Assembly (NCBI GenBank): GCA_963769425.1
Contig: CAVYLP010000004.1
Location: 320,001 to 384,000 of the forward strand
DNA from: Candidatus Bathyarchaeota archaeon
GTDB lineage: Archaea > Thermoproteota > Bathyarchaeia > TCS64
Length of the DNA: 64,000 bases
Direction: 5' to 3'
Shown one piece after another: positions 14,732 through 26,430 of the stretch (the first letter of the stretch is position 1; the number at the start of each line of letters is the position of its first letter). Both the position numbers and the translations under genes were made by a program. The notes beneath the pieces were generated by a model, which was not told the DNA's origin, made no database searches, and worked only from the letters and a program-made list of their open reading frames with translations.

Positions 14732-16306
14732 TTGGACTCGGTTTTGAATAGCGCCCTCAGGGAGATCGTAGAGAAGCTTCTTCAGGTAAAAGACCCAACG
14801 AAGGCTGACCTAGATCGGGTAAAGATCGAGGTCGCCCGGGCACACGGTCTTCCGCAGATACCCCGCAACTCGGAGATACTCGCTACCCTCACTGAGGAGG
14901 AGGCAGAGATTCTACTGCCCATTCTCAGGAGGAAGGAGGCGCGCGCCCTAAGCGGGGTGAGCGTCGTCGCTGTGATGACTGAGCCCTACGCTTGCCCCCA
15001 CGGGCGCTGCGCCTACTGCCCCGGCGGCCCCGACGAGGACAGCCCCCAGAGCTACACGGGCTACGAGCCAGCCGCAATGAGGGGCGCGCAGAACGAGTAC
15101 GATCCCTACAGGCAGGTCAAGGCGCGGATCAAGCAGTTGAAGACCATCGGGCACGTCGTCGACAAGGTCGACCTCATAATCATGGGCGGGACCTTCCCCG
15201 CGTCGCCCCGTGCCTATCAGGAGGGCTTCGTGAAGGGGCTCTTAGACGCACTCACCGACGTGCCATCCGCTGACCTCGCCGAGGCGAAGCTTCATGCCGA
15301 GGACTCGGGCGTGAGGAACGTCGGCATAACCGTCGAGACACGACCCGACTGCATAAAGGAGGCGGATGTGAACGGGATGCTGGAGCTGGGCGTCACACGC
15401 GTGGAGCTCGGCGTCCAGAACGTCTACGACGACATCTACCAGAAGGTCAACCGGGGCCACTCGGTGCAGGACGTGGTAGACGCCACGGCCTGCCTCAAGG
15501 ACTCCGCCCTCAAGATATGCTACCACATGATGCCCGGCCTCCCCGGTTCAAACCCGGAGAGGGACTTGGAGGGCTTCAGAACAATCTTCGAGGACCCTCG
15601 CTTCAAGCCGGACATGCTCAAGATATACCCCACCCTAGTCGTGAAGGGTACGCGCCTCTACGACTGGTGGAAGAAGGGCGAGTACACGCCCCTTGAGACG
15701 GAGGAGGCGGCTGAGCTGGTGTCCAAGGTGATGGAGATCACGCCACCGTGGGTCAGGATAATGCGTGTCCAGCGTGACATACCCCTCCCCAGGATAGACG
15801 CGGGGGTCGACATGAGCAACCTCAGGCAGCTAGCCGAGGACCGCCTCGTGGCGAGGGGCGGTCGTTGCAGGTGCATCCGATGCCGCGAGGCTGGCCACTC
15901 CGCGAAGAAGGCCGACTCGGGTAAGGTCGAGTTAACCCACACAGTCTACGAAGCCTCGGGGGGCACCGAGGACTTCATACAGGCCGAGGACAGGGAGGCG
16001 GACGCCCTCATAGGCTTCGTCAGGCTCAGGATACCTACTGAGCCCTTCAGGCCCGAGCTGGACACCCAAACTGGGCTGATCCGAGAGCTACACGTCTACG
16101 GGCGCATGGTCCCCGTCGGTGAGAGGCGGGGCGACGCGTGGCAGCACAGGGGCTGGGGTGAGGCACTCATGGATGAGGCCGAGAAGGCCGCCTCTGAGAG
16201 GTTCGATATGCGGAGGATGGTAGTGATGAGCGCCCTCGGAACGAAGCAGTACTATGCCCGCCTCGGCTACGCGAAGCAGGGCGTCTATGTCTCCAAGCCC
16301 CTCTGA
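14732..16306 (+). CDS. elp3: tRNA wobble-uridine acetyltransferase Elp3 (radical SAM + KAT domains)
   Basis: CPHGRCAYCPGG, QSYTG.EPA.MR, ETRPD, KIYPTLV, RELHVYG and QHRGWG motifs. Confidence 0.97.
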   Translation: MDSVLNSALREIVEKLLQVKDPTKADLDRVKIEVARAHGLPQIPRNSEILATLTEEEAEILLPILRRKEARALSGVSVVAVMTEPYACPHGRCAYCPGGPDEDSPQSYTGYEPAAMRGAQNEYDPYRQVKARIKQLKTIGHVVDKVDLIIMGGTFPASPRAYQEGFVKGLLDALTDVPSADLAEAKLHAEDSGVRNVGITVETRPDCIKEADVNGMLELGVTRVELGVQNVYDDIYQKVNRGHSVQDVVDATACLKDSALKICYHMMPGLPGSNPERDLEGFRTIFEDPRFKPDMLKIYPTLVVKGTRLYDWWKKGEYTPLETEEAAELVSKVMEITPPWVRIMRVQRDIPLPRIDAGVDMSNLRQLAEDRLVARGGRCRCIRCREAGHSAKKADSGKVELTHTVYEASGGTEDFIQAEDREADALIGFVRLRIPTEPFRPELDTQTGLIRELHVYGRMVPVGERRGDAWQHRGWGEALMDEAEKAASERFDMRRMVVMSALGTKQYYARLGYAKQGVYVSKPL

Positions 16307-16353: not shown

Positions 16354-17685
16354 ATGGCTACCGAGACTCTCCCCGGCTACAGAGGGAAGCTCAGGGAGCT
16401 TCTCACCCGCGCTAGGGTCGGCGTGGGGGACGTGGTCAGGGTAAACAAGGGTGGCGAGGCATACGAGGGCACGCTCCTCCCCCGCGTCGAGAACGCCGAC
16501 GACTGGCACCTAATCATCAAGCAGAAGACCGGCTACAACATAGGGATCGCCCTCGTCAACGACCTACGCGTCGAGAAGATCGGGGAGGCCGTGAAGCCCG
16601 AGTTCAGGCCACCACCACTCCCCCCCGTGAAGGAGGGGCTGCCCAAGGTCAGCATCATAAGCACAGGCGGCACCATCGCAAGCCGCGTCGACTACGTAAC
16701 CGGCGGCGTCTATGCCGCGATGTCGAGTCGGGACCTACTCAGCATCGTCCCAGAGCTCGCAGACATCGCCCAGATCGAGGCGGACATCCTCTATAGCGTC
16801 TTCAGCGAGAACATCAACTCGGACCATTGGGAGGGCATTGCGAAGAGGGTGGCAGAGAAGATCAAGCAGGGCGCGGACGGCGTCATCATCACACACGGGA
16901 CAGACACGATGGGGTACAGCACCGCCGCACTCACGCTGGCGATCCAGAACCTCCCCGTCCCCGTCATCTTCGTCGGTAGCCAACGCAGTAGCGACCGCCC
17001 CAGCAGCGACTCCGCCACGAACCTAGTCGCAGTTGTCAACGCGGCGGCCCACGCCCCCTTCGCCGAGGTTGTCCTAGGCATGCACGAGGGCACGGGCGAC
17101 GACTCCATAATCTTCCACCCCGGCGCCAAGGTCCGCAAGTGCCACTCAAGCGCCCGCTACGCCTTCCAGACGGTGAACGCGAGCCCCGTAGCCCGATTCA
17201 GGGACGGTAAGATGGAGATGCTAGCCGAGCATTACCGGCCACGCCAGGACTCGGAGCCCATCATCATGAACAAGTTCGAGAAGAAGGTGGCGCTCGTCAA
17301 GTTCCACCCCGGATTCAACCCAATAATAATCGACGCCCTCATAGACGCGGGCTTCCGCGGCCTCGTCTTCGAGGGGACGGGCCTCGGCCACGTCTCCGAG
17401 ACGCTCTACGACGCCATCGGGCGCGCGGGGAAGGCGGGTTTGCTTATGGGTATGACGAGCCAGTGCATCTGGGGCCGCGTAAACATGAACGTCTACAGCA
17501 TGGGGCGGGAGCTAACACGCCGCGGCGTCGAGCCTCTTGAGGACATGCTCCCCGAGACCGCCTTAGTCAAGATGATGTGGAGCCTCGGCAACACGGGCAC
17601 CGCCGAGGAGGCGAAGAAGCTCCTCAAGACAAACGTCGCGGGGGAGTACAACCCCCGGACCCCGTACGCGAGGAGGGAGAAGTGA
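16354..17685 (+). CDS. gatD: Glu-tRNA(Gln) amidotransferase subunit D
   Basis: STGGTIASRVDY.TG, HGTDTM, GSQRSSDRPSSD and GTGLGH motifs. Confidence 0.97.
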   Translation: MATETLPGYRGKLRELLTRARVGVGDVVRVNKGGEAYEGTLLPRVENADDWHLIIKQKTGYNIGIALVNDLRVEKIGEAVKPEFRPPPLPPVKEGLPKVSIISTGGTIASRVDYVTGGVYAAMSSRDLLSIVPELADIAQIEADILYSVFSENINSDHWEGIAKRVAEKIKQGADGVIITHGTDTMGYSTAALTLAIQNLPVPVIFVGSQRSSDRPSSDSATNLVAVVNAAAHAPFAEVVLGMHEGTGDDSIIFHPGAKVRKCHSSARYAFQTVNASPVARFRDGKMEMLAEHYRPRQDSEPIIMNKFEKKVALVKFHPGFNPIIIDALIDAGFRGLVFEGTGLGHVSETLYDAIGRAGKAGLLMGMTSQCIWGRVNMNVYSMGRELTRRGVEPLEDMLPETALVKMMWSLGNTGTAEEAKKLLKTNVAGEYNPRTPYARREK

Positions 17686-19584
17686 TGGACTACAAGAAGA
17701 TAGGGCTAAAGGTCGGCATAGAGGTCCACCAGGAGCTCGCCACCGAGCACAAGCTCTTCTGCAGCTGCCCCCCGAGGCTCAGCGAGTCGGAGCCCGAGTT
17801 CAGGTTCCTGCGCCGCCTCCGTCCGAGCCAGAGTGAACTAGGCGAGTTCGACCCAGCCGCCCTATTCGAGTTCCTCAAGGGCAAGACTATACAGTACGAG
17901 GGCGACAGCGCCACAACATGTCTCGTCGAGATGGACGAGGAGCCCCCAGGACCCCTAGACCCCGAGACGCTTGAGCTGACCCTGAGCTTCGCCCTCATGG
18001 TGGGGAGCAAGCCTGTGGACGAGGTCCACGTGATGCGTAAGACCGTCGTGGATGGCAGCAACACGGGCGGGTTCCAGCGAACATGCGTCGTCAGCCTCGG
18101 TGGAGGCATTGAGGTCGACGGCAAACCGTACGGTATCCAGCAGATCAGTCTCGAGGAGGACGCCGCGAGGAACGTCGGCGAGGAGGGGAGCATCGTCCGC
18201 TACCGCCTCGACCGCCTCGGGATACCCCTCATGGAGATCGCTACTGCGCCTGACATGCACAACCCAGCGGAGGTCCAGGCAGTAGCACTCAGGATCGGTA
18301 GCTTACTCCGCGCCACCGGGAAGGTACGTAGGGGCCTTGGCACAATCCGCCAGGACGTGAACGTCTCGATAATGAACGGGAGAGGTCGTCGAGATCAAGG
18401 GCGTCCAGGATCTACCCCTGATGCCCACCATAGTCGAGTACGAGGCTCAGCGCCAGTGGAGCCTCCTAGAGATCAAGGAGGAGCTCCTTAAGCGCGGCGT
18501 GAAGCCCGAACACATTAAGGACGAGCAGCTCGACGTATCCACCATCTTCAAGGCGACCGAGTCAAAGATACTAAAGGGCGCGCTGAAGAATGGGGGTGTT
18601 GTTAGGGCGGTGAGACTCCCCGGCTTCGCAGGCCTGACCGGCAGGGAGCTATGCCCCAACAGACGCCTCGGCACCGAAATGAGCGACCACGCCAAGTACA
18701 AGGGCGGGGTCAAGGGAATCTTCCACACAGACGAGCTACCCGGCTACAGCATCACACAGGCCGAGGTCGACGCCCTACGCTCCGCCGCCCACGCCGCGGA
18801 GGGGGACGCCGTCGTCATAGTCGCTGATGAAGCGGAGAAGAGCAGACGAGCCCTGACGGCAGTAGTGGAGCGGGCACGGGATGTCTTCAACGGGATACCC
18901 TTGGAGACCCGGGCGGCGAACCCCGACGGGACTACCCGATTTACGCGGCCACGCCCCGGCGCAGCGCGCATGTACCCAGAGACGGATGTAAAGGCCATAA
19001 CCATAACCCCCGAGCACCTAGAGAAGCTCAGGGCGAGCCTACCCGAGATGCCGGAGGCCAAACTCAAGCGCTTCCAGAGTGACTACGGCCTCAACGAGAA
19101 GCTGGCGAGGCAGATCGTCGACAGCGAGTACATGGGCCTCTTCGAGGAGTTGACGCGCGAGTACAAGGCTCTTACTACACTCGCTGCGGTGACTCTTACT
19201 GAGGACCTGAAGAAGCTACAGAGGGACGGCGTCCCAGTTGAGGCGCTTACGGACAATGCCATACGCGGTACCTTCGCCCTTGTGGATTGCGGGGATACCG
19301 TGAAGGAGTCGGTCCCAGTAATACTCACGTGGCTCGTCCAGAACCCTTCCAGGAAGGCGAGGGATGCTATCACCGCCCTCGGGCTAGGTGTACTATCGGA
19401 AGAGAAGCTCGCTTCTGTCGTCGACGCGAAGATCAAGGCGAACACCGCGATGATCGCCAAGATAGGGGAGAAGGCTGCGGGGCCGATAATGGGTGCAGTC
19501 ATGGCGGAGGTACGCGGGAAGGCGAAGGCCACTGACGTGCAGGATATGATCGCGAGAAAGCTTAAGGAAGCACTCGCGAAGTAA
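17685..19584 (+). CDS. gatE: Glu-tRNA(Gln) amidotransferase subunit E, split by a single-base frameshift near 18378-18381
   Basis: MDYKKIGLKVGIEVHQ, DGSNTGGFQRT and GTIRQDVNVSI, then VVEIKGVQ and RPRPGAARMYPETD in the next frame; removing one G restores SIMNGEVVEIKGVQ. Confidence 0.93.
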
Positions 19585-19821
19585 TCCTTATTTTATAATA
19601 TTCGCTCATTCATAAGCGTATTATGATCAGGCTATGTATATCATCTCATAATTCTGAGACGTTATGCATTAAATCAGGATAATAATCTTGAATAAAGACC
19701 AAAAAACAACGATTTTTCATATTTAATCGCCTTTTTTAAAAAGGGTAACAAAACGCCGCAAGTTGTTCGACAACTGTTATAAGCCCCATAATACCAAGAG
19801 TAATACGAGTTGTGAGGATCC

Positions 19822-20265
19822 ATGAGCCGCCCGCTGTTTCATCTCAAAGTTAAGATCGGGGAGATGGAGGTAGAGCTAGGCGGGGACAAGGCAGAGGTCC
19901 TCAGCGCCCTCGACGAGCTCCCGAGTATAGTCGAGAAGGTCTCCGCGAGCTTCCAGGGTGAGTCCTCCGGTCACAGGCCACGCCCCCGGAAGCAGCCGGA
20001 GAACGGGGCCCCCGAGGCGTTGCCTCAGATTCCCCGGACCACCCAGTGCAGCGAGGCAGTGACCGCGCTCCTCGCGGACCCGTGGGGGAAGACTCCCCGA
20101 ACCATCGCGGAACTCAGGGAGGCTATGGAGGCAAACGCCGTCTTCTTCCCCAAAACGACCCTATCCGGGGTCCTCGTTTGGATGGTGAAGAAGGGGACCG
20201 TCAGAAGGTGGAAGGACAAGAAGAGGGGATACCTCTACACGATGAATACGCCGGAGCCCGAGTAG
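19822..20265 (+). CDS. Hypothetical protein: N-terminal beta-hairpin domain plus C-terminal winged helix
   Basis: LKVKIGEMEVELGG N-terminus; PRTIAELREAM...LSGVLVWMVKKGTVRR...GYLY wHTH pattern. Confidence 0.75.
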   Translation: MSRPLFHLKVKIGEMEVELGGDKAEVLSALDELPSIVEKVSASFQGESSGHRPRPRKQPENGAPEALPQIPRTTQCSEAVTALLADPWGKTPRTIAELREAMEANAVFFPKTTLSGVLVWMVKKGTVRRWKDKKRGYLYTMNTPEPE

Positions 20266-20266
20266 T

Positions 20267-20749
20267 ATGCCGAAGATAACGCTGACCGTCAAGACCCAGT
20301 TCGGGGACATACAGGTGTCGGGGGAGAACCCCGAGGAGCTTCTCAGCGGCCTAGACTGGCTCACACAAGAGTACGTAGCGCAGCTCAATGAGAAGGTCTC
20401 CGTGGTTGTCTCAAAGCAAGCCCTCGACCACCTGAAGGACATAGTCGAGATGAGGCGGGACGGCCCAATACTCGTCTGCAAGGAGGAGATAAGCCACTAC
20501 GAGGCTATCGGGTTACTCCTCTACGCGATGAAGGGTTACCAGGCGACGGGGAAGGAGTTGAAGGCTTTCCTCAACGAGAGCGGGCGCAAGGTGATAGTGC
20601 CCGCTCGGCTTCACGAGATGGTGAAGAAGGGCGTGCTCTTCCGCCCCGAGGGGAGGGGGAGTATCTACAAGCTGACGGCGAAGGGCGTCAACTGGGTGGA
20701 GAAGGAGGTTCTTCCGCCGATTCGGGAGAAGCAGGCTGCGTTGGCCTAG
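20267..20749 (+). CDS. Hypothetical protein: N-terminal beta-hairpin domain plus C-terminal winged helix
   Basis: ITLTVKTQFGDIQVSG N-terminus; ARLHEMVKKGVLF...YKLTAKG wing motif. Confidence 0.75.
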   Translation: MPKITLTVKTQFGDIQVSGENPEELLSGLDWLTQEYVAQLNEKVSVVVSKQALDHLKDIVEMRRDGPILVCKEEISHYEAIGLLLYAMKGYQATGKELKAFLNESGRKVIVPARLHEMVKKGVLFRPEGRGSIYKLTAKGVNWVEKEVLPPIREKQAALA

Positions 20750-21062
20750 GGTGTGCCCTTTCGTAGTCCTCGTACATGTCGGAAACAGTGACGAGTAGAC
20801 TGAGTATGATCTGCTTAGCTTCGCAGGTGTAGCCTCCGTCCTTGAATGGGCTGCGCTGTATGAGATTCTTCTCGAGGAGCTTCGACACCGCCCTCTCCGT
20901 CGCCTTGGGCGTGAGGTTGAGTTCCGTCGAGATCTCCTTCACCGTCATCGTCCTCGCAGTCCCCAGTAGGTGGAATACTATCTGGAACTGGCTCGGCGCC
21001 TTCCGTAGCTTGAGGAGCGTGTCCGTCCTGTCCCTTAGCTCGGCAAGCTGCTTCTCAGACAT
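20688..21062 (-). CDS. Small winged-helix (TrmB/MarR-like) protein
   Basis: MTVKEISTELNLTPKATERAVSKLLEKNLIQR. Confidence 0.8.
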   Translation of the reverse strand: MSEKQLAELRDRTDTLLKLRKAPSQFQIVFHLLGTARTMTVKEISTELNLTPKATERAVSKLLEKNLIQRSPFKDGGYTCEAKQIILSLLVTVSDMYEDYERAHPRPTQPASPESAEEPPSPPS

Positions 21063-21141
21063 CTTTTCCCGATGCCACTTTCTCTCATGACCTTTTAAAT
21101 GATACCTATCGGCGTGGAGCAGGGAGGTGGTCGAAAGTGGC

Positions 21142-21399
21142 TTACTTGTGCCCCATGTCCCGGTAGAGCTTCATGATCAAATCATAAGGCGTCACGACGG
21201 CGACGTAGCCCTCGGGGCGTGCCTCGACTAGGCCCTGCTTCTTCAACTCCGCGAGGCGCGCTCGGACCGTGGAGCCGTTCTCCCCCAGAACCACAGCGAT
21301 CTCCTGCGGCTTGAGGATGCTCCCCCTAAAGGCTAGGTGGCAGAGTATCTTGTAGGCTGAGGTCTCGGGTTCTAGCTGGTCGAGCTTCTCGGCGCTCAT
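21142..21399 (-). CDS. Small winged-helix protein
   Basis: LKPQEIAVVLGENGSTVRARLAELKKQGLV. Confidence 0.85.
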   Translation of the reverse strand: MSAEKLDQLEPETSAYKILCHLAFRGSILKPQEIAVVLGENGSTVRARLAELKKQGLVEARPEGYVAVVTPYDLIMKLYRDMGHK

Positions 21400-21662
21400 T
21401 TGGTGAAATACTCCTTGAGGAGCGTGACTAGGATGGGGCCGAGCTTGTAGCGGTAGACTCCGCGGCTGACGGGGTCGACGAGCCCCTTGTTCTTGAGATT
21501 GAAGAGGGCGATGTTGACGGCGTTGACGGTGAGCTTGAGTTTCTCGGCGATCTCCTGACTCGACATGGCCTCGCCGCTCTCAACGAGGCAGAGTAGCACC
21601 TGCTGCTGGCTTTCTGCTCGCCTCAGGCCCTCAAGCTCGTCCGCGCCAACCAACCCGGTCAC
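21396..21662 (-). CDS. Small winged-helix protein
   Basis: MSSQEIAEKLKLTVNAVNIALFNLKNKGLV..VSRGVY. Confidence 0.85.
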   Translation of the reverse strand: MTGLVGADELEGLRRAESQQQVLLCLVESGEAMSSQEIAEKLKLTVNAVNIALFNLKNKGLVDPVSRGVYRYKLGPILVTLLKEYFTK

Positions 21663-21916
21663 TTCTTCGCGAAGATGTATGAAACGAAGTCGGTGAAGGG
21701 GATGGCGCTTCTGTAGGTACCGTCTTCTTGCTGCTTGACGTAACCCTTGTCGAGGAGGCTACGGAGCGCTGGACGTACTGTGCCTGGGGCGATGCCTGTC
21801 TCCTCGCTAATAGCTCCAGGGAGGCTCGCGCCACGGAATGCCAGGTATGTTAGGGTCTTGAATTGCGCCGTATCCGGTTTGAGCTCTTGCGTCGCCTTAT
21901 CGATCAGCTCTGCCAA
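21659..21916 (-). CDS. Small winged-helix protein
   Basis: PGAISEETGIAPGTVRPALRSLLDKGYV. Confidence 0.85.
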   Translation of the reverse strand: MAELIDKATQELKPDTAQFKTLTYLAFRGASLPGAISEETGIAPGTVRPALRSLLDKGYVKQQEDGTYRSAIPFTDFVSYIFAKK

Positions 21917-21917
21917 T

Positions 21918-22163
21918 CTACTTCACCTGCTTCTCCAGTGCCTCAATTCTCTCCATTAGATGGATGACGATCCCTGCGTAGTTAGGCTCGTAGTTGCCCC
22001 GCCCGCTCCTTTGGAGGAGCCCTTCACGGGCCAGCTTGGCGAAGGCGTCCTTGACAGAGTTGTACTTAGCGTCGAGCTTGGCCGCCATCTGCTCGGGGCC
22101 GAGTGTTGGGTCTTGGAGGAAGCTGCGGAAAACCTTGTCCTTTAGGCTCAAATCCTCGGACAT
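21918..22163 (-). CDS. Small winged-helix protein
   Basis: GPEQMAAKLDAKYNSVKDAFAKLAREGLL..SGRGNY. Confidence 0.8.
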   Translation of the reverse strand: MSEDLSLKDKVFRSFLQDPTLGPEQMAAKLDAKYNSVKDAFAKLAREGLLQRSGRGNYEPNYAGIVIHLMERIEALEKQVK

Positions 22164-22333
22164 TTGATTAAAACTGGCCCGTACTTCTTATTAACTTTGT
22201 TTTTGACCTGGCGATGTCGGATCGCTCGTGGAGTGGTTTTACCGAGCGTTATCATTTCTTTATTTATATATAAAATGGCGTTTAAACCAAATTACGCTCT
22301 ATGCATTCGATCACTTTATATGTCTAGGAAAAA

Positions 22334-23431
22334 ATGTGTTGTGCAGGGACAGTTCTGGGGGTTAATCGTCGAGTGCTAAGTCTTGAGGAGCGGGCGGGGG
22401 TAATTGAGGGAGTACGGAGGCCGGGGGAGAGTCTGAGCCTCTCCATAAGGGACCTCCTGCTGGGCGAGATTTCGAGTGACGTGGCGTCTGAGCAACCCGC
22501 CGTCGCTGCCTTAGCTGCTAGGATCAGGGAGGAGATGAGCCTCTTCCCCATGACGAAGCATGAGGTATTCAAGAGAGTGGCTGGTGTGGACGCGGGGAGC
22601 CAGATCCTGCCCCTTGCATCGAAGAGGTATGGCGTCGTCAGCGCACTCGCCTACGGGCTTCCGGGGGGAGCTAAATTTTGGATGCGCCCCGAGTCGATGT
22701 CGCTTCCGTACGGTGTCGCGGGGAATAGGTTCGAGGGGATGGTGAACGCGAGGAGGGAGGCGAAGCTCTACGAGACCGCAGCCGTCTACCTAATTGCCCA
22801 CCCCGAGACCGAGCTACTCCTAGTCGACGGTCCACTCGCCTTCAGCGACTGGTGGAGGATGACGGGCTGCCACAAGGACCAGAAGAGGCTCCTCGACGCC
22901 GTCAACAATCTTCTTCACCTCGGCAGGGAAGCTGGTGTCGCCCTCGCCGGCGTCGTGAAGAGGCCGAGCGCCAGGTACCTCCTTTACCATCTCGGCATGC
23001 AGGGGGAGACTCAACTACCCGACAGCTTCCTCCTCCTCCACGCGCTGAGGCCGGGGGAGAGGACGGACATCTTCTCGCCGAAGTCCGCGCTGGCGCAGGC
23101 GAGCAGGCCCGCCGCCTTCATGGGCTCCCTAGACGTCCCCATCTACAGCTTCTATGCAAGGATGACACGGGAGTGGAGCCTCCCCCCCATTAGGGTGGAC
23201 CTCCCCGCCCACTGCCTCGGGGGGCTCGACGACGTCGCCGACTACTGCTATGGGACGGCGCTAAACAACGGCATACCTCTCCCCCTAGTGAAGGCGGACG
23301 AGGAGGTCAAGATAACCCGCCGCTTCATGGCGGAGGTCTACGGGGAGATACTGAGCAGGGTGAGCAGGCGCACCGGGGAGGTACGGGGGCTCGCGCCGTA
23401 CTGGGGTGAGGGCAGATGGATGGGGGCTTGA
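22334..23431 (+). CDS. NurA-domain nuclease (true start probably further downstream)
   Basis: VAGVDAGS, LLLVDGPL, GVVKR and GIPLPLVKADEEVKI motifs match the NurA RNase H-fold pattern. Confidence 0.8.
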   Translation: MCCAGTVLGVNRRVLSLEERAGVIEGVRRPGESLSLSIRDLLLGEISSDVASEQPAVAALAARIREEMSLFPMTKHEVFKRVAGVDAGSQILPLASKRYGVVSALAYGLPGGAKFWMRPESMSLPYGVAGNRFEGMVNARREAKLYETAAVYLIAHPETELLLVDGPLAFSDWWRMTGCHKDQKRLLDAVNNLLHLGREAGVALAGVVKRPSARYLLYHLGMQGETQLPDSFLLLHALRPGERTDIFSPKSALAQASRPAAFMGSLDVPIYSFYARMTREWSLPPIRVDLPAHCLGGLDDVADYCYGTALNNGIPLPLVKADEEVKITRRFMAEVYGEILSRVSRRTGEVRGLAPYWGEGRWMGA

Positions 23432-24930
23432 AGGTAGGGCATACCTACAGCCTGACGGGCGAGTACAGCATCGATAAGATCACTGTGCTCCTCATGAGGG
23501 GACGTGAGTTGGCGAAGGGCGACCTCGTCTACGTCAAGCACCCTAAGAACGGGTCACCCGTCGTTTACCAGGTCGTCAAGGTCTACCCCCACAAGCGGGT
23601 CCGCGAGTACGAGGAGGCCCTGCTCACAGAGGGGCGAGTCATAGACGACGCCGAGGACTCCAGTCTGCACGCAGAGGCGTACCAGTGGGGGTGGATGGAC
23701 GGGGAGGGCAGCCTCAGGCCGCTACGGTACCCACTCGCCCCAAACACGCAGGTCTTCGCGGCGGAGCGCGACCTTGTCGCGAAGTTCACGAAGCCGAACG
23801 GGGAGTGGAAGTTCCTACTCGGCACGGACCCGACGACCGACCTCGATGTTGAACTGGGTCTCTACCCGTTGATCCGGCAGAGCTGTCTCATCTGCGGGGC
23901 GGTTGGGACAGGGAAGACGACGACGGCAGTAAGCATGGTGGCACGCGCTGCAAACGCGAATCCCCCTGTCCGCTTCTTTATAGTCGATAAGGACGGGGAG
24001 TACAGCAGCTTAACCGACCGCCTCGGGGCGGGCGCCGTCCTCAAGGTACCTTGGAGCAGCTTCTTCCAGCCCGGTGACATCCCCTGGGACGACTACGTCG
24101 CCGAGTTCGGGTGGCAGAAGACGTGGTGGAACGCTAAGATACTCGTCCAGGCGCTGAAAGTCCTCTACGCGCAGGCCGCCACCGTCACGAAGGCGAACCT
24201 ACGTCGGGCTGTCACCATCGTAAGCCCCGAGAACCTGGGATTCAACAAGAAGTCGGAGGAGTGGGAGCTATACAGGGCACAGGTGGAGAACGCCATAAAC
24301 GCGAGCCGACTCATCCCCGAGGGCGAAGCCACCGTCCTAGACCCAGTCCAGCTCCTCAAGGAGAGGAAGATAATCATCATGGACCTTAGCGACGGCAAGG
24401 ACACTTGGGAGCAGAAGCACCTTGTTGTGGCTCAGGTTCTCCGGAAGATCTTCGGTGAGGCCCTGGAGAACAGGAAGTTCGGATGCATCGTACTGCTCGA
24501 GGAGGCGATGTACTACGCGCCTCAGCACGGCGTCTTCGAGATAGGTGAGAAGGAGAGCCGGGGGAAGCTACTTAGTGTCATCAAGGAGATCGCTACGAAC
24601 GGTGGGCGTAACGGCGTCGGCCTCTGGGCGGTGACGCAGCGCCTCGCTACCGTGGAGAAGACCGTAGTTACCCAGTGCGCTAACAACATTATCTGTCATG
24701 GTCTCGAGGACCTCGACAAGCAGCGCCTCGCAGAGATAATGGGGGACGAGTTTACGCAGCTCATAGGCGACTTGCCCCCGGGGGAGGCTATAGTGAAGGG
24801 AACCGCATTAAAGTGTCGGTTTCCTATCTGGGTCAAGGTGCTCCCCGAGGTCTACCCCGCGTCGAGCCTGAGTACCCCGATGAGTCGCTTTGTCCACATG
24901 GCATTGACCGAGGCGGCCGCTCCCCAATAA
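23428..24930 (+). CDS. HerA/FtsK-family ATPase (HAS-barrel-like N-terminus, DUF87-type)
   Basis: Walker A GAVGTGKT, IVDKDGEY, Walker B LLEEAMYYAP, GVGLWAVTQR and LPPGEAIV; the TTG start overlaps the nurA stop. Confidence 0.85.
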   Translation: MKVGHTYSLTGEYSIDKITVLLMRGRELAKGDLVYVKHPKNGSPVVYQVVKVYPHKRVREYEEALLTEGRVIDDAEDSSLHAEAYQWGWMDGEGSLRPLRYPLAPNTQVFAAERDLVAKFTKPNGEWKFLLGTDPTTDLDVELGLYPLIRQSCLICGAVGTGKTTTAVSMVARAANANPPVRFFIVDKDGEYSSLTDRLGAGAVLKVPWSSFFQPGDIPWDDYVAEFGWQKTWWNAKILVQALKVLYAQAATVTKANLRRAVTIVSPENLGFNKKSEEWELYRAQVENAINASRLIPEGEATVLDPVQLLKERKIIIMDLSDGKDTWEQKHLVVAQVLRKIFGEALENRKFGCIVLLEEAMYYAPQHGVFEIGEKESRGKLLSVIKEIATNGGRNGVGLWAVTQRLATVEKTVVTQCANNIICHGLEDLDKQRLAEIMGDEFTQLIGDLPPGEAIVKGTALKCRFPIWVKVLPEVYPASSLSTPMSRFVHMALTEAAAPQ

Positions 24931-25998: not shown

Positions 25999-26430
25999 AT
26001 GAGTCCTAGCCGCCTCTATCCTGAGCGCCCCATGATCGGTGTGGGTACGCTGATCCGAAAGGGCGAGGAGTACCTCCTGATCAAGCGCGCATCCGAGCCC
26101 GATAAGGGGCTCTGGTCAGTCCCCGGGGGGATGGTGGAGCTTGGAGAGAAGACGAGGGAGGCCGCCGTGAGGGAGGCGGAGGAGGAGACGGGGCTCGTAG
26201 TGGAGATTCTTGAGGACCTCGGCGTCGTCGACAAGATAGTGAGGGATGAGGCGGGGAGGGTGAGGTACCACTTCGTGATAATCGACTACCTCGCGGAGCC
26301 GGTCTCGGGGGTGATGCACCACCACGATGACGCCTTAGACGCCCGCTGGGTTCACCCGCGTGACTTCAGGAAGTACGAGATGTCCCCGACGCTTGTTGAT
26401 CTATTGAAGAAGATCGACCTGTACCCCTAG
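25999..26430 (+). CDS. Nudix hydrolase
   Basis: Nudix box GGMVELGEKTREAAVREAEEETGL. Confidence 0.95.
   Translation: MSPSRLYPERPMIGVGTLIRKGEEYLLIKRASEPDKGLWSVPGGMVELGEKTREAAVREAEEETGLVVEILEDLGVVDKIVRDEAGRVRYHFVIIDYLAEPVSGVMHHHDDALDARWVHPRDFRKYEMSPTLVDLLKKIDLYP

Follow-up and report, generated by a model that had tools for sequence, protein, structure and literature searches.

A conserved array of seven predicted winged-helix genes and its linkage to a second, divergent NurA-HerA pair in Bathyarchaeia

HerA and NurA are viewed as the two proteins of a minimal resection engine, which acts together with Mre11-Rad50; for most archaea, we know of nothing on how HerA-NurA is directed to DNA or controlled. 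On a motor of the FtsK/HerA superfamily, DNA is read by a winged helix-turn-helix (wHTH), the gamma domain of FtsK, which recognizes FtsK-orienting polar sequences (KOPS), and small wHTH proteins of the PadR, F93 and Sso10a types pair by their C-terminal helices. The known HerA-NurA cluster is described as one of four genes in the accessible part of a 2026 NurA review. Here we analyze a stretch of 64,000 nucleotides, hereafter the window, from a Candidatus Bathyarchaeota archaeon (GenBank assembly GCA_963769425.1, contig CAVYLP010000004.1, positions 320,001 to 384,000 of the forward strand), in which an array of seven small genes, A147 to G81, lies beside a second and divergent NurA-HerA pair. 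The data favor one co-functional module, tied to HerA-NurA, over a set of unrelated repressors or a general chromatin complex. The terms "winged" and "Bathyarchae" have no occurrences in the accessible part of the 2026 review, and a wHTH module with HerA-NurA is not described in the literature searched, which took in accessible parts of that review, of the 2023 Ced/Ted paper and of the 2014 archaeal "dark matter" paper; a mention in the 2004 FtsK-HerA comparative paper is possible. Within these sources, the locus is a known machine with a conserved accessory gene set not described before.

The array spans window positions 19822-22163 and encodes proteins of 81-160 amino acids (aa), two from the plus strand and five from the minus strand, with gatD and gatE upstream and nurA-herA downstream, as judged from the open reading frames (ORFs) of the window and their profile matches (Table 1). 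An earlier note, drawn from the letters of the window, had described this convergent set of five and two genes, which the ORF list matches exactly, and its tight coupling by 4-bp overlaps or a 1-bp gap, which is seen at D/E and E/F (4-bp overlaps, ATGA and GTGA) and at F/G (1 nt apart, as are A and B). C and D are spaced by 79 nt, and the convergent B160 and C124 share 62 nt at their 3' ends (window 20688-20749). The guanine-cytosine (GC) content is 0.57-0.65 within the genes, like that of the genome core, versus 0.38-0.45 in both flanking intergenic regions, bearing out the AT-rich flanks and core-like composition that had been noted before.

Table 1. Features of the array and of the adjoining nurA-herA pair, in window coordinates.
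Feature	Position	Strand	Description
A147	19822-20265	+	N-terminal hairpin and helix, variable linker, C-terminal wHTH; Pfam-less family "A"
B160	20267-20749	+	N-terminal part of β-hairpin, long helix and second hairpin, then wHTH and long C-terminal helix; Pfam-less family "B"
C124	20688-21062	-	Short wHTH, C-terminal helix, low-complexity tail; own intergenic gap upstream in many loci
D85	21142-21399	-	Short wHTH and C-terminal helix
E88	21396-21662	-	Short wHTH and C-terminal helix; member with highest conservation
F85	21659-21916	-	Short wHTH and C-terminal helix
G81	21918-22163	-	Short wHTH, C-terminal amphipathic helix; leads the five-gene operon; divergent from nurA
AT-rich intergenic region upstream of A147	19585-19821	.	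GC 0.38; presumed A-B promoter
56-bp symmetric element	22244-22299	.	Between G81 and nurA; possible promoter and/or operator common to both
NurA-family nuclease, second divergent copy	22334-23431	+	PF09376, 46 bits (cut-off 21)
HerA-family ATPase, second divergent copy	23416-24930	+	DUF87 (PF01935), 39.4 bits (cut-off 23.2); overlaps the nurA stop

B relatives are encoded at 407 loci in a scan that took one genome per species, and the best 80 of the 407 were classified. Their titles name Bathyarchaeota or Bathyarchaeia, except for two given as "uncultured archaeon" and four labeled as bacterial metagenome-assembled genomes (MAGs). Among these 80, 59 species-level Bathyarchaeia loci have the order gatD-gatE-A-B-(C, D, E, F, G reversed)-nurA-herA, with the five short genes complete in 53 and the other 6 interrupted by contig ends or an N gap; the array, for which a check of synteny across Bathyarchaeia had been proposed, is thus conserved and not a chance cluster. 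The block is also intact in all 12 loci drawn from three families of the host's taxonomic order, with one-to-one orthologs at 46-92% identity and with gatD-gatE at its flank wherever the contig extends far enough (the 59 loci include some of these 12, and the two counts are not independent). Identity levels in the array (C124 53-85%, E88 65-91%, F85 48-86%) are comparable to those of GatD, GatE and NurA. Each of the seven families has one copy in the host genome, which comprises 2.55 Mb in 6 contigs, and 73 of the order's 79 genomes have a single E88 gene, as do all 23 of high quality. Coupling is likewise maintained, with gaps of no more than 20 nt at A-B in 55 of 56 loci, D-E in 55 of 55, E-F in 52 of 55 and F-G in 52 of 53; C and D lie more than 20 nt apart in 29 of 57 loci, and the longest-ORF calls of B and C touch or overlap in 44 of 59. 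The typical Bathyarchaeia array is carried by contigs of four loci filed under bacterial MAG names (L085, L097, L111 and L112; Patescibacteria, Krumholzibacteriaceae, Thermodesulfobacteriota and Desulfaltia), names that are probably binning errors.

The phylum-wide linkage of A/B-type genes to NurA-HerA, overlooked by the earlier note, is the strongest clue. In the window itself, the true start of nurA is likely a GTG near 22373, to judge from the intergenic alignment, and the HerA translation contains a Walker A motif (GTGKT) and a Walker-B-like LLEEA motif. The nurA and herA genes overlap in 49 of 49 loci, the adjacency by which a HerA-NurA system is recognized; none of the seven ORFs scanned upstream and downstream of the window pair has a Metallophos or SMC match that would indicate clustering with mre11 or rad50. 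A nurA-herA-mre11-rad50 operon, whose canonical HerA matches DUF87 far more strongly (E 1e-33), lies on another contig of the host. Because this separate operon has no A/B neighbor, the array goes with the second, divergent pair. Elsewhere, clusters of 2-5 tandem A/B-type paralogs adjoin a NurA-HerA pair in most loci examined: next to NurA and HerA in 7 of 8 loci from other families of the class, where two NurA-sized ORFs without a Pfam match fit a clean NurA profile (E 2e-44 and 2e-28), and beside NurA-HerA in 23 of 36 further loci of the phylum (24 by a broader profile). A survey of 301 genomes across the phylum with the B profile detected the family in 96, among them 40 of the 43 that represent 11 other families of the class. 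In a quick tree the linked HerAs are spread over at least three deep clades. In three loci (L027, L028 and L029) the wHTH genes and nurA-herA form the same strand run. Mre11-like genes come after HerA in L025, L028 and L041, and other repair genes are found nearby, Lhr in L062 and Ogg in L069 and L070. Beyond adjacency, a 466-aa protein of one lineage (L053:7273-8673, minus strand) carries a B-family part (i-E 3e-26) behind a DUF87 ATPase core (E 3e-18), with a coiled coil between them, and this fusion recurs in two protein clusters on several contigs. The L053 fusion gene stands between those for prolyl-tRNA synthetase and pyruvate:ferredoxin oxidoreductase.

Two HerA loci have features of their own. 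An 836-aa HerA (L061:2342-4852, minus strand) carries an intein (Intein_splicing E 6e-20) just ahead of its DUF87 core, and at L050:949-6236 two tandem NurA-HerA pairs, with HerAs of different clades, adjoin one A/B-type cluster.

The remaining 21 of the 80 classified loci, from sister lineages, have A and B together with one paralog of each, B' (~169 aa) for B and A' for A; A' is divergent from NurA and is followed by NurA in 16 of the 21. Profile comparison by hhalign relates A' to A with a probability of 98% and B' to B with 97%, and D85 weakly to B' (77%). From these relationships we infer that, in this taxonomic order only, the five short genes may have replaced B'/A' as paralogs with a shorter N-terminus.

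The short proteins C to G form one paralog family, as judged by their sequences, with a predicted winged helix followed by a C-terminal helix. They are mutual paralogs at 27-35% BLAST identity and hhalign probabilities of 91-99%, D85 and F85 being related at 35% identity (BLAST) with an hhalign E of 3e-21. The wHTH proposed earlier for all five is found at the Pfam gathering threshold in four: in C124 by MarR (27.6 bits, cut-off 24.6) and HTH_24 (26.6 bits, cut-off 21.9), in D85 by HrcA_DNA-bdg (23.7 bits, cut-off 21), in E88 by HTH_24 (25.0 bits, cut-off 21.9) and in F85 by HTH_IclR (23.9 bits, cut-off 22), all of them generic wHTH models. For G81, every Pfam match falls below threshold and it is hhalign that places it in the C-G family, at a probability of 91-95%. 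The hydrophobic C-terminal stretches and the T..(F/Y)K.L..LAFRG motif quoted before are found in the translations, the motif in D85 and F85. Each of the five has a distinct conserved recognition-helix signature and a C-terminal amphipathic helix, and the tail of C124 is of low complexity and varies in length among loci. The proteins do not fall into unrelated known regulator families, an outcome that the earlier note had named as telling against its proposal. PadR membership (PF03551) is not indicated for the array proteins, the only match being F85 at 12.5 bits against a gathering score of 27, so that likeness to PadR is structural only. Lrs14/Sta1 membership (NF040939, NF053606) was also considered and is ruled out, the best scores being 28.1 bits for E88 and 27.3 bits for C124 versus cut-offs of 90 and 80. 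Among solved sequences, an Lrs14-like protein comes nearest to E88 (E 0.1), and for A147, B160 and E88 no solved relative was found by sequence at better than E 0.05. A 90-aa ORF in a low-GC (0.43) region at G000:C3:13718-13990 resembles E88 (profile E 9e-7).

Families A and B add an N-terminal part to the wHTH. B160 has no Pfam or NCBIfam match. Its AF2 model, with a predicted local distance difference test score (pLDDT) of 84, begins with a β-hairpin, a pair of helices (one of them long) and another hairpin, followed by the wHTH and, at the C-terminus, a long helix, and the winged-helix fold (three-helix bundle and β-wing), assessed on the B160 model, is present there. Residues 70-160 match QsrR, MftR, F93, PadR and AspA with Z scores of 9-11 and root-mean-square deviations of 2.2-3.0 over 82-85 residues; a Foldseek search of the PDB with the full model gave no row at E 1e-3 or better. 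Folded by itself, the N-terminal domain reaches a pLDDT of 68 and a predicted TM-score of 0.36, and its best structural match (Z 3.4) involves long helices only. The profile of this domain has 62 matches among 1.84 billion representatives, nearly all of 200 aa or less and with the domain N-terminal; no new architectures appear in those 62, two long matches with repeated short stretches looking spurious. A147, whose orthologs can be aligned across the class, has nothing at the Pfam threshold (Penicillinase_R scores 17.7 bits, below the cut-off of 22.6) and a best solved relative by sequence at E 0.05. Its homology to B160 is weak (BLAST 31% over 49 aa, E 0.04; hhalign E 2e-4), and one B-type protein carries an A-like N-terminus. 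Hence the hairpin N-domain and wHTH layout suggested earlier for the plus-strand pair holds in the model of B160 and, by that weak homology, would extend to A147, whose N-terminal part is probably a β-hairpin as well. None of the 72 B homologs listed has an informative name or a Pfam domain, and the sole name among them other than "hypothetical protein", histidine kinase, is an evident mis-annotation; the Atlas clusters for A and B are likewise Bathyarchaeota hypothetical proteins.

The host genome holds a second A/B-like set at G000:C6:~726000-728000 (L034:3992-5907), with a GC content of 0.44 versus 0.55 for the genome, which may be an acquired island. Its three proteins are of 150 aa (A-like), 304 aa (with a B-like C-terminus) and 180 aa (beginning with a similar hairpin); the N-terminal part of the 304-aa protein has an R-x-x-x-x-H-like motif, possibly HEPN-like, with no Pfam match. 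Similar to this part is that of a 287-aa A/B-like protein in L057, where several A/B-like proteins and a 469-aa HerA-like ATPase with a wHTH-looking C-terminus are encoded on one strand (L057:5180-9587, minus), with a PIN gene near.

Upstream of A, the 8-mers AAGTATTA and GTATTATA occur in 27-35 of 53 loci (shuffle maximum 8). The G81/nurA intergenic region, with a median length of 193 bp and divergent transcription in 52 of 52 loci, has three conserved blocks, namely a TATA-like box by G81, centered ~27 nt upstream of its ATG as read by eye from the sequence, the 56-bp element, and a TATA-like box before nurA. The element is built of GAGC and ATTTC arms flanking a TATA-like core on both sides, the two arms differing in internal spacing (6 versus 3 nt between conserved blocks). 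It is present in 53 of 53 loci with no indels, 19 of 64 aligned columns are invariant, and TATATAAA occurs in 51 of 53 intergenic regions (shuffle maximum 9). The arm pair has a single occurrence in the 2.55-Mb genome, and a search for a wider regulon with single arms at up to 3 mismatches gave 14 scattered matches in the genome, none of them paired. An RNA-hairpin reading of the element was considered, but its arms are unequally spaced and palindromic protein sites would yield the same co-variation. Lineages with the other wHTH complement (A'/B') have different conserved palindrome-like motifs at the same site. The 56-bp element could serve the two operons as a common bidirectional promoter, as an operator, or as both.

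Tentatively, and with some reserve, we prefer to see in the array an accessory module that binds DNA, controlling the shared promoter while also working with the HerA-NurA proteins. This reading draws on the gene order kept across the taxonomic order, on the A/B-NurA-HerA linkage across the phylum, and on the fusion of a B-type part to a HerA-like ATPase. The seven genes would constitute one co-inherited set of diverged wHTH DNA-binding proteins serving the adjacent, non-canonical NurA-HerA. A and B would pair through their hairpin and long-helix N-terminal parts, and the five short proteins through their C-terminal helices, giving homo- or hetero-dimers that would bind DNA. At least one such dimer would bind the 56-bp element and so set the expression of the G81 operon and of nurA-herA, and the wHTH set would, in addition, recruit, position or modulate HerA-NurA on DNA. 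A stoichiometric hetero-oligomer is plausible from the coupling and joint inheritance of the genes.

Several observations weigh against such a module. NurA is missing from the fetched flanks of 13 of the 36 phylum loci, and likewise of L024. The L053 fusion ATPase has no N-terminal barrel and no NurA neighbor, and the fusion may belong to a different system. Residual distance correlations between the seven families, from a mirror-tree comparison of 47 loci controlled for NurA and HerA, are modest (0.04-0.47, computed without a null model from pairs that are not independent), and a search of proteins of 155-2000 aa gave no E88 fusion, which is weak evidence. Lastly, the wHTH folds are of a generic transcription-factor type, and plain regulators consequently account for much of the data.

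At its fullest, that last point would make the seven proteins transcription regulators only: one or more of them would act at the 56-bp element to repress or activate the divergent operons nurA-herA and G-C, perhaps in answer to DNA damage, and none would contact the HerA-NurA proteins. We regard this as unlikely, if still a serious competitor. Both the sequence and the fold matches of the proteins are to generic regulator-type wHTHs, the operon and nurA are transcribed divergently across their intergenic region, and the element there is unique in the genome, invariant in spacing and replaced by other palindrome-like motifs in the sister lineages. Seven conserved paralogs are nevertheless excessive for one promoter whose element has at most two half-site pairs, and their conservation is at the level of housekeeping enzymes. 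In addition, a B-type domain is fused to a HerA-like ATPase, and several lineages have A/B-type genes placed within the nurA-herA strand run, as in L027, L028 and L029.

A bolder version of the preferred reading, argued by analogy and rather improbable in our estimation, would make the wHTH paralogs detachable DNA readers of the HerA-NurA machine, the counterpart of the FtsK gamma domain. The hetero-oligomeric set would then recognize particular DNA sequences or structures and load or orient the hexameric HerA translocase together with NurA, as a guided translocase-nuclease that would act in chromosome processing (programmed resection, chromosome resolution or segregation) and not in general break repair. 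No FtsK gamma model is among the Pfam matches of any of the seven proteins at E up to 1.

Architectural chromatin or nucleoid proteins of the Sso10a or Lrs14 type, coating or bridging DNA as a hetero-oligomer, are an improbable alternative. They would fit the small wHTH and C-terminal helix layout, the weak NCBIfam Lrs14/Sta1 matches at 26-28 bits, the Lrs14-like sequence nearest to E88 and the presence of Sso10a-2 among the Foldseek rows of B160. Those scores are, however, far under cut-offs of 80-90 bits, and a tight and specific linkage to NurA-HerA is unexpected for general chromatin proteins. Abundant chromatin proteins are basic; the seven array proteins have near-neutral isoelectric points (6.7-9.1) and net charges of 0 to +3, and the bulk chromatin role raised by the earlier note is accordingly not favored.

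It is equally doubtful that the genes encode seven independent regulators with separate regulons that are merely clustered. Each paralog does have its own conserved recognition helix, and C124 often has its own upstream gap, but the five short genes occur together wherever the contig allows, in fixed order, and overlap or nearly touch. The preference of the earlier note for a common function over seven independent repressors is upheld by the conservation of the array as a unit, by the maintained coupling and by single-copy paralogs with recognition helices of their own. A mobile element or anti-virus defense island around a HerA-like ATPase is very improbable, for although HerA-type ATPases occur in defense systems (PADLOC HerA and mad8 matches), extra A/B-like genes lie in low-GC islands of the host genome and a PIN gene is near in L057, the array keeps a fixed site by gatDE across the order and a core-like GC content, B relatives are found in 0 of 35 candidate stretches from viral contigs, and PADLOC and PHROGs give generic wHTH matches only.

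The surroundings of the array include a few further features. Between window positions 15000 and 27000 there is no Rfam match and no tRNA. The gatE gene (17577-19584) is broken into two frames around window 18379-18383, its ortholog aligning in frame 3 to ~18383 and in frame 1 from ~18379; orthologs elsewhere are one ORF of ~632 aa, and the split reflects either a frameshift or an indel from assembly. A NUDIX hydrolase gene (window 25999-26430) is found close to the HerA end of the block, as is one at L044:2232-2705 in a distant family.

Should the proposed accessory module prove true, a DNA-recognition or control layer would be added to the HerA-NurA machine, and a function would be assigned to several core genes now called "hypothetical" in the Bathyarchaeia, which are abundant and for the most part uncultured. 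As the proteins are small and their genes known, the idea is directly testable with recombinant proteins.

Compared with described systems, the locus shares with the archaeal HerA-NurA(-Mre11-Rad50) cluster an overlapping NurA (PF09376)/HerA (DUF87) pair and, in some lineages, Mre11-like genes downstream, but differs in that the pair is a second and divergent one with 2-7 dedicated wHTH genes, the canonical four-gene operon being elsewhere. With wHTH proteins of the PadR, MarR, F-93 and AspA types it has in common the fold of B160 residues 70-160 and, by sequence, the wHTH and C-terminal helix layout of the short proteins, whereas the N-terminal part of A and B is without counterpart there and solved sequence relatives reach E 0.05 at best. 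The small crenarchaeal wHTH proteins Lrs14, Sta1 and Sso10a resemble the array proteins in size and layout and give weak profile matches, in contrast to which the array is a fixed multi-paralog operon tied to NurA-HerA. As for the FtsK gamma domain, the L053 fusion of ATPase, linker and B-type wHTH repeats its layout, a functional analogy only, whereas the wHTH proteins of the window are seven separate polypeptides.

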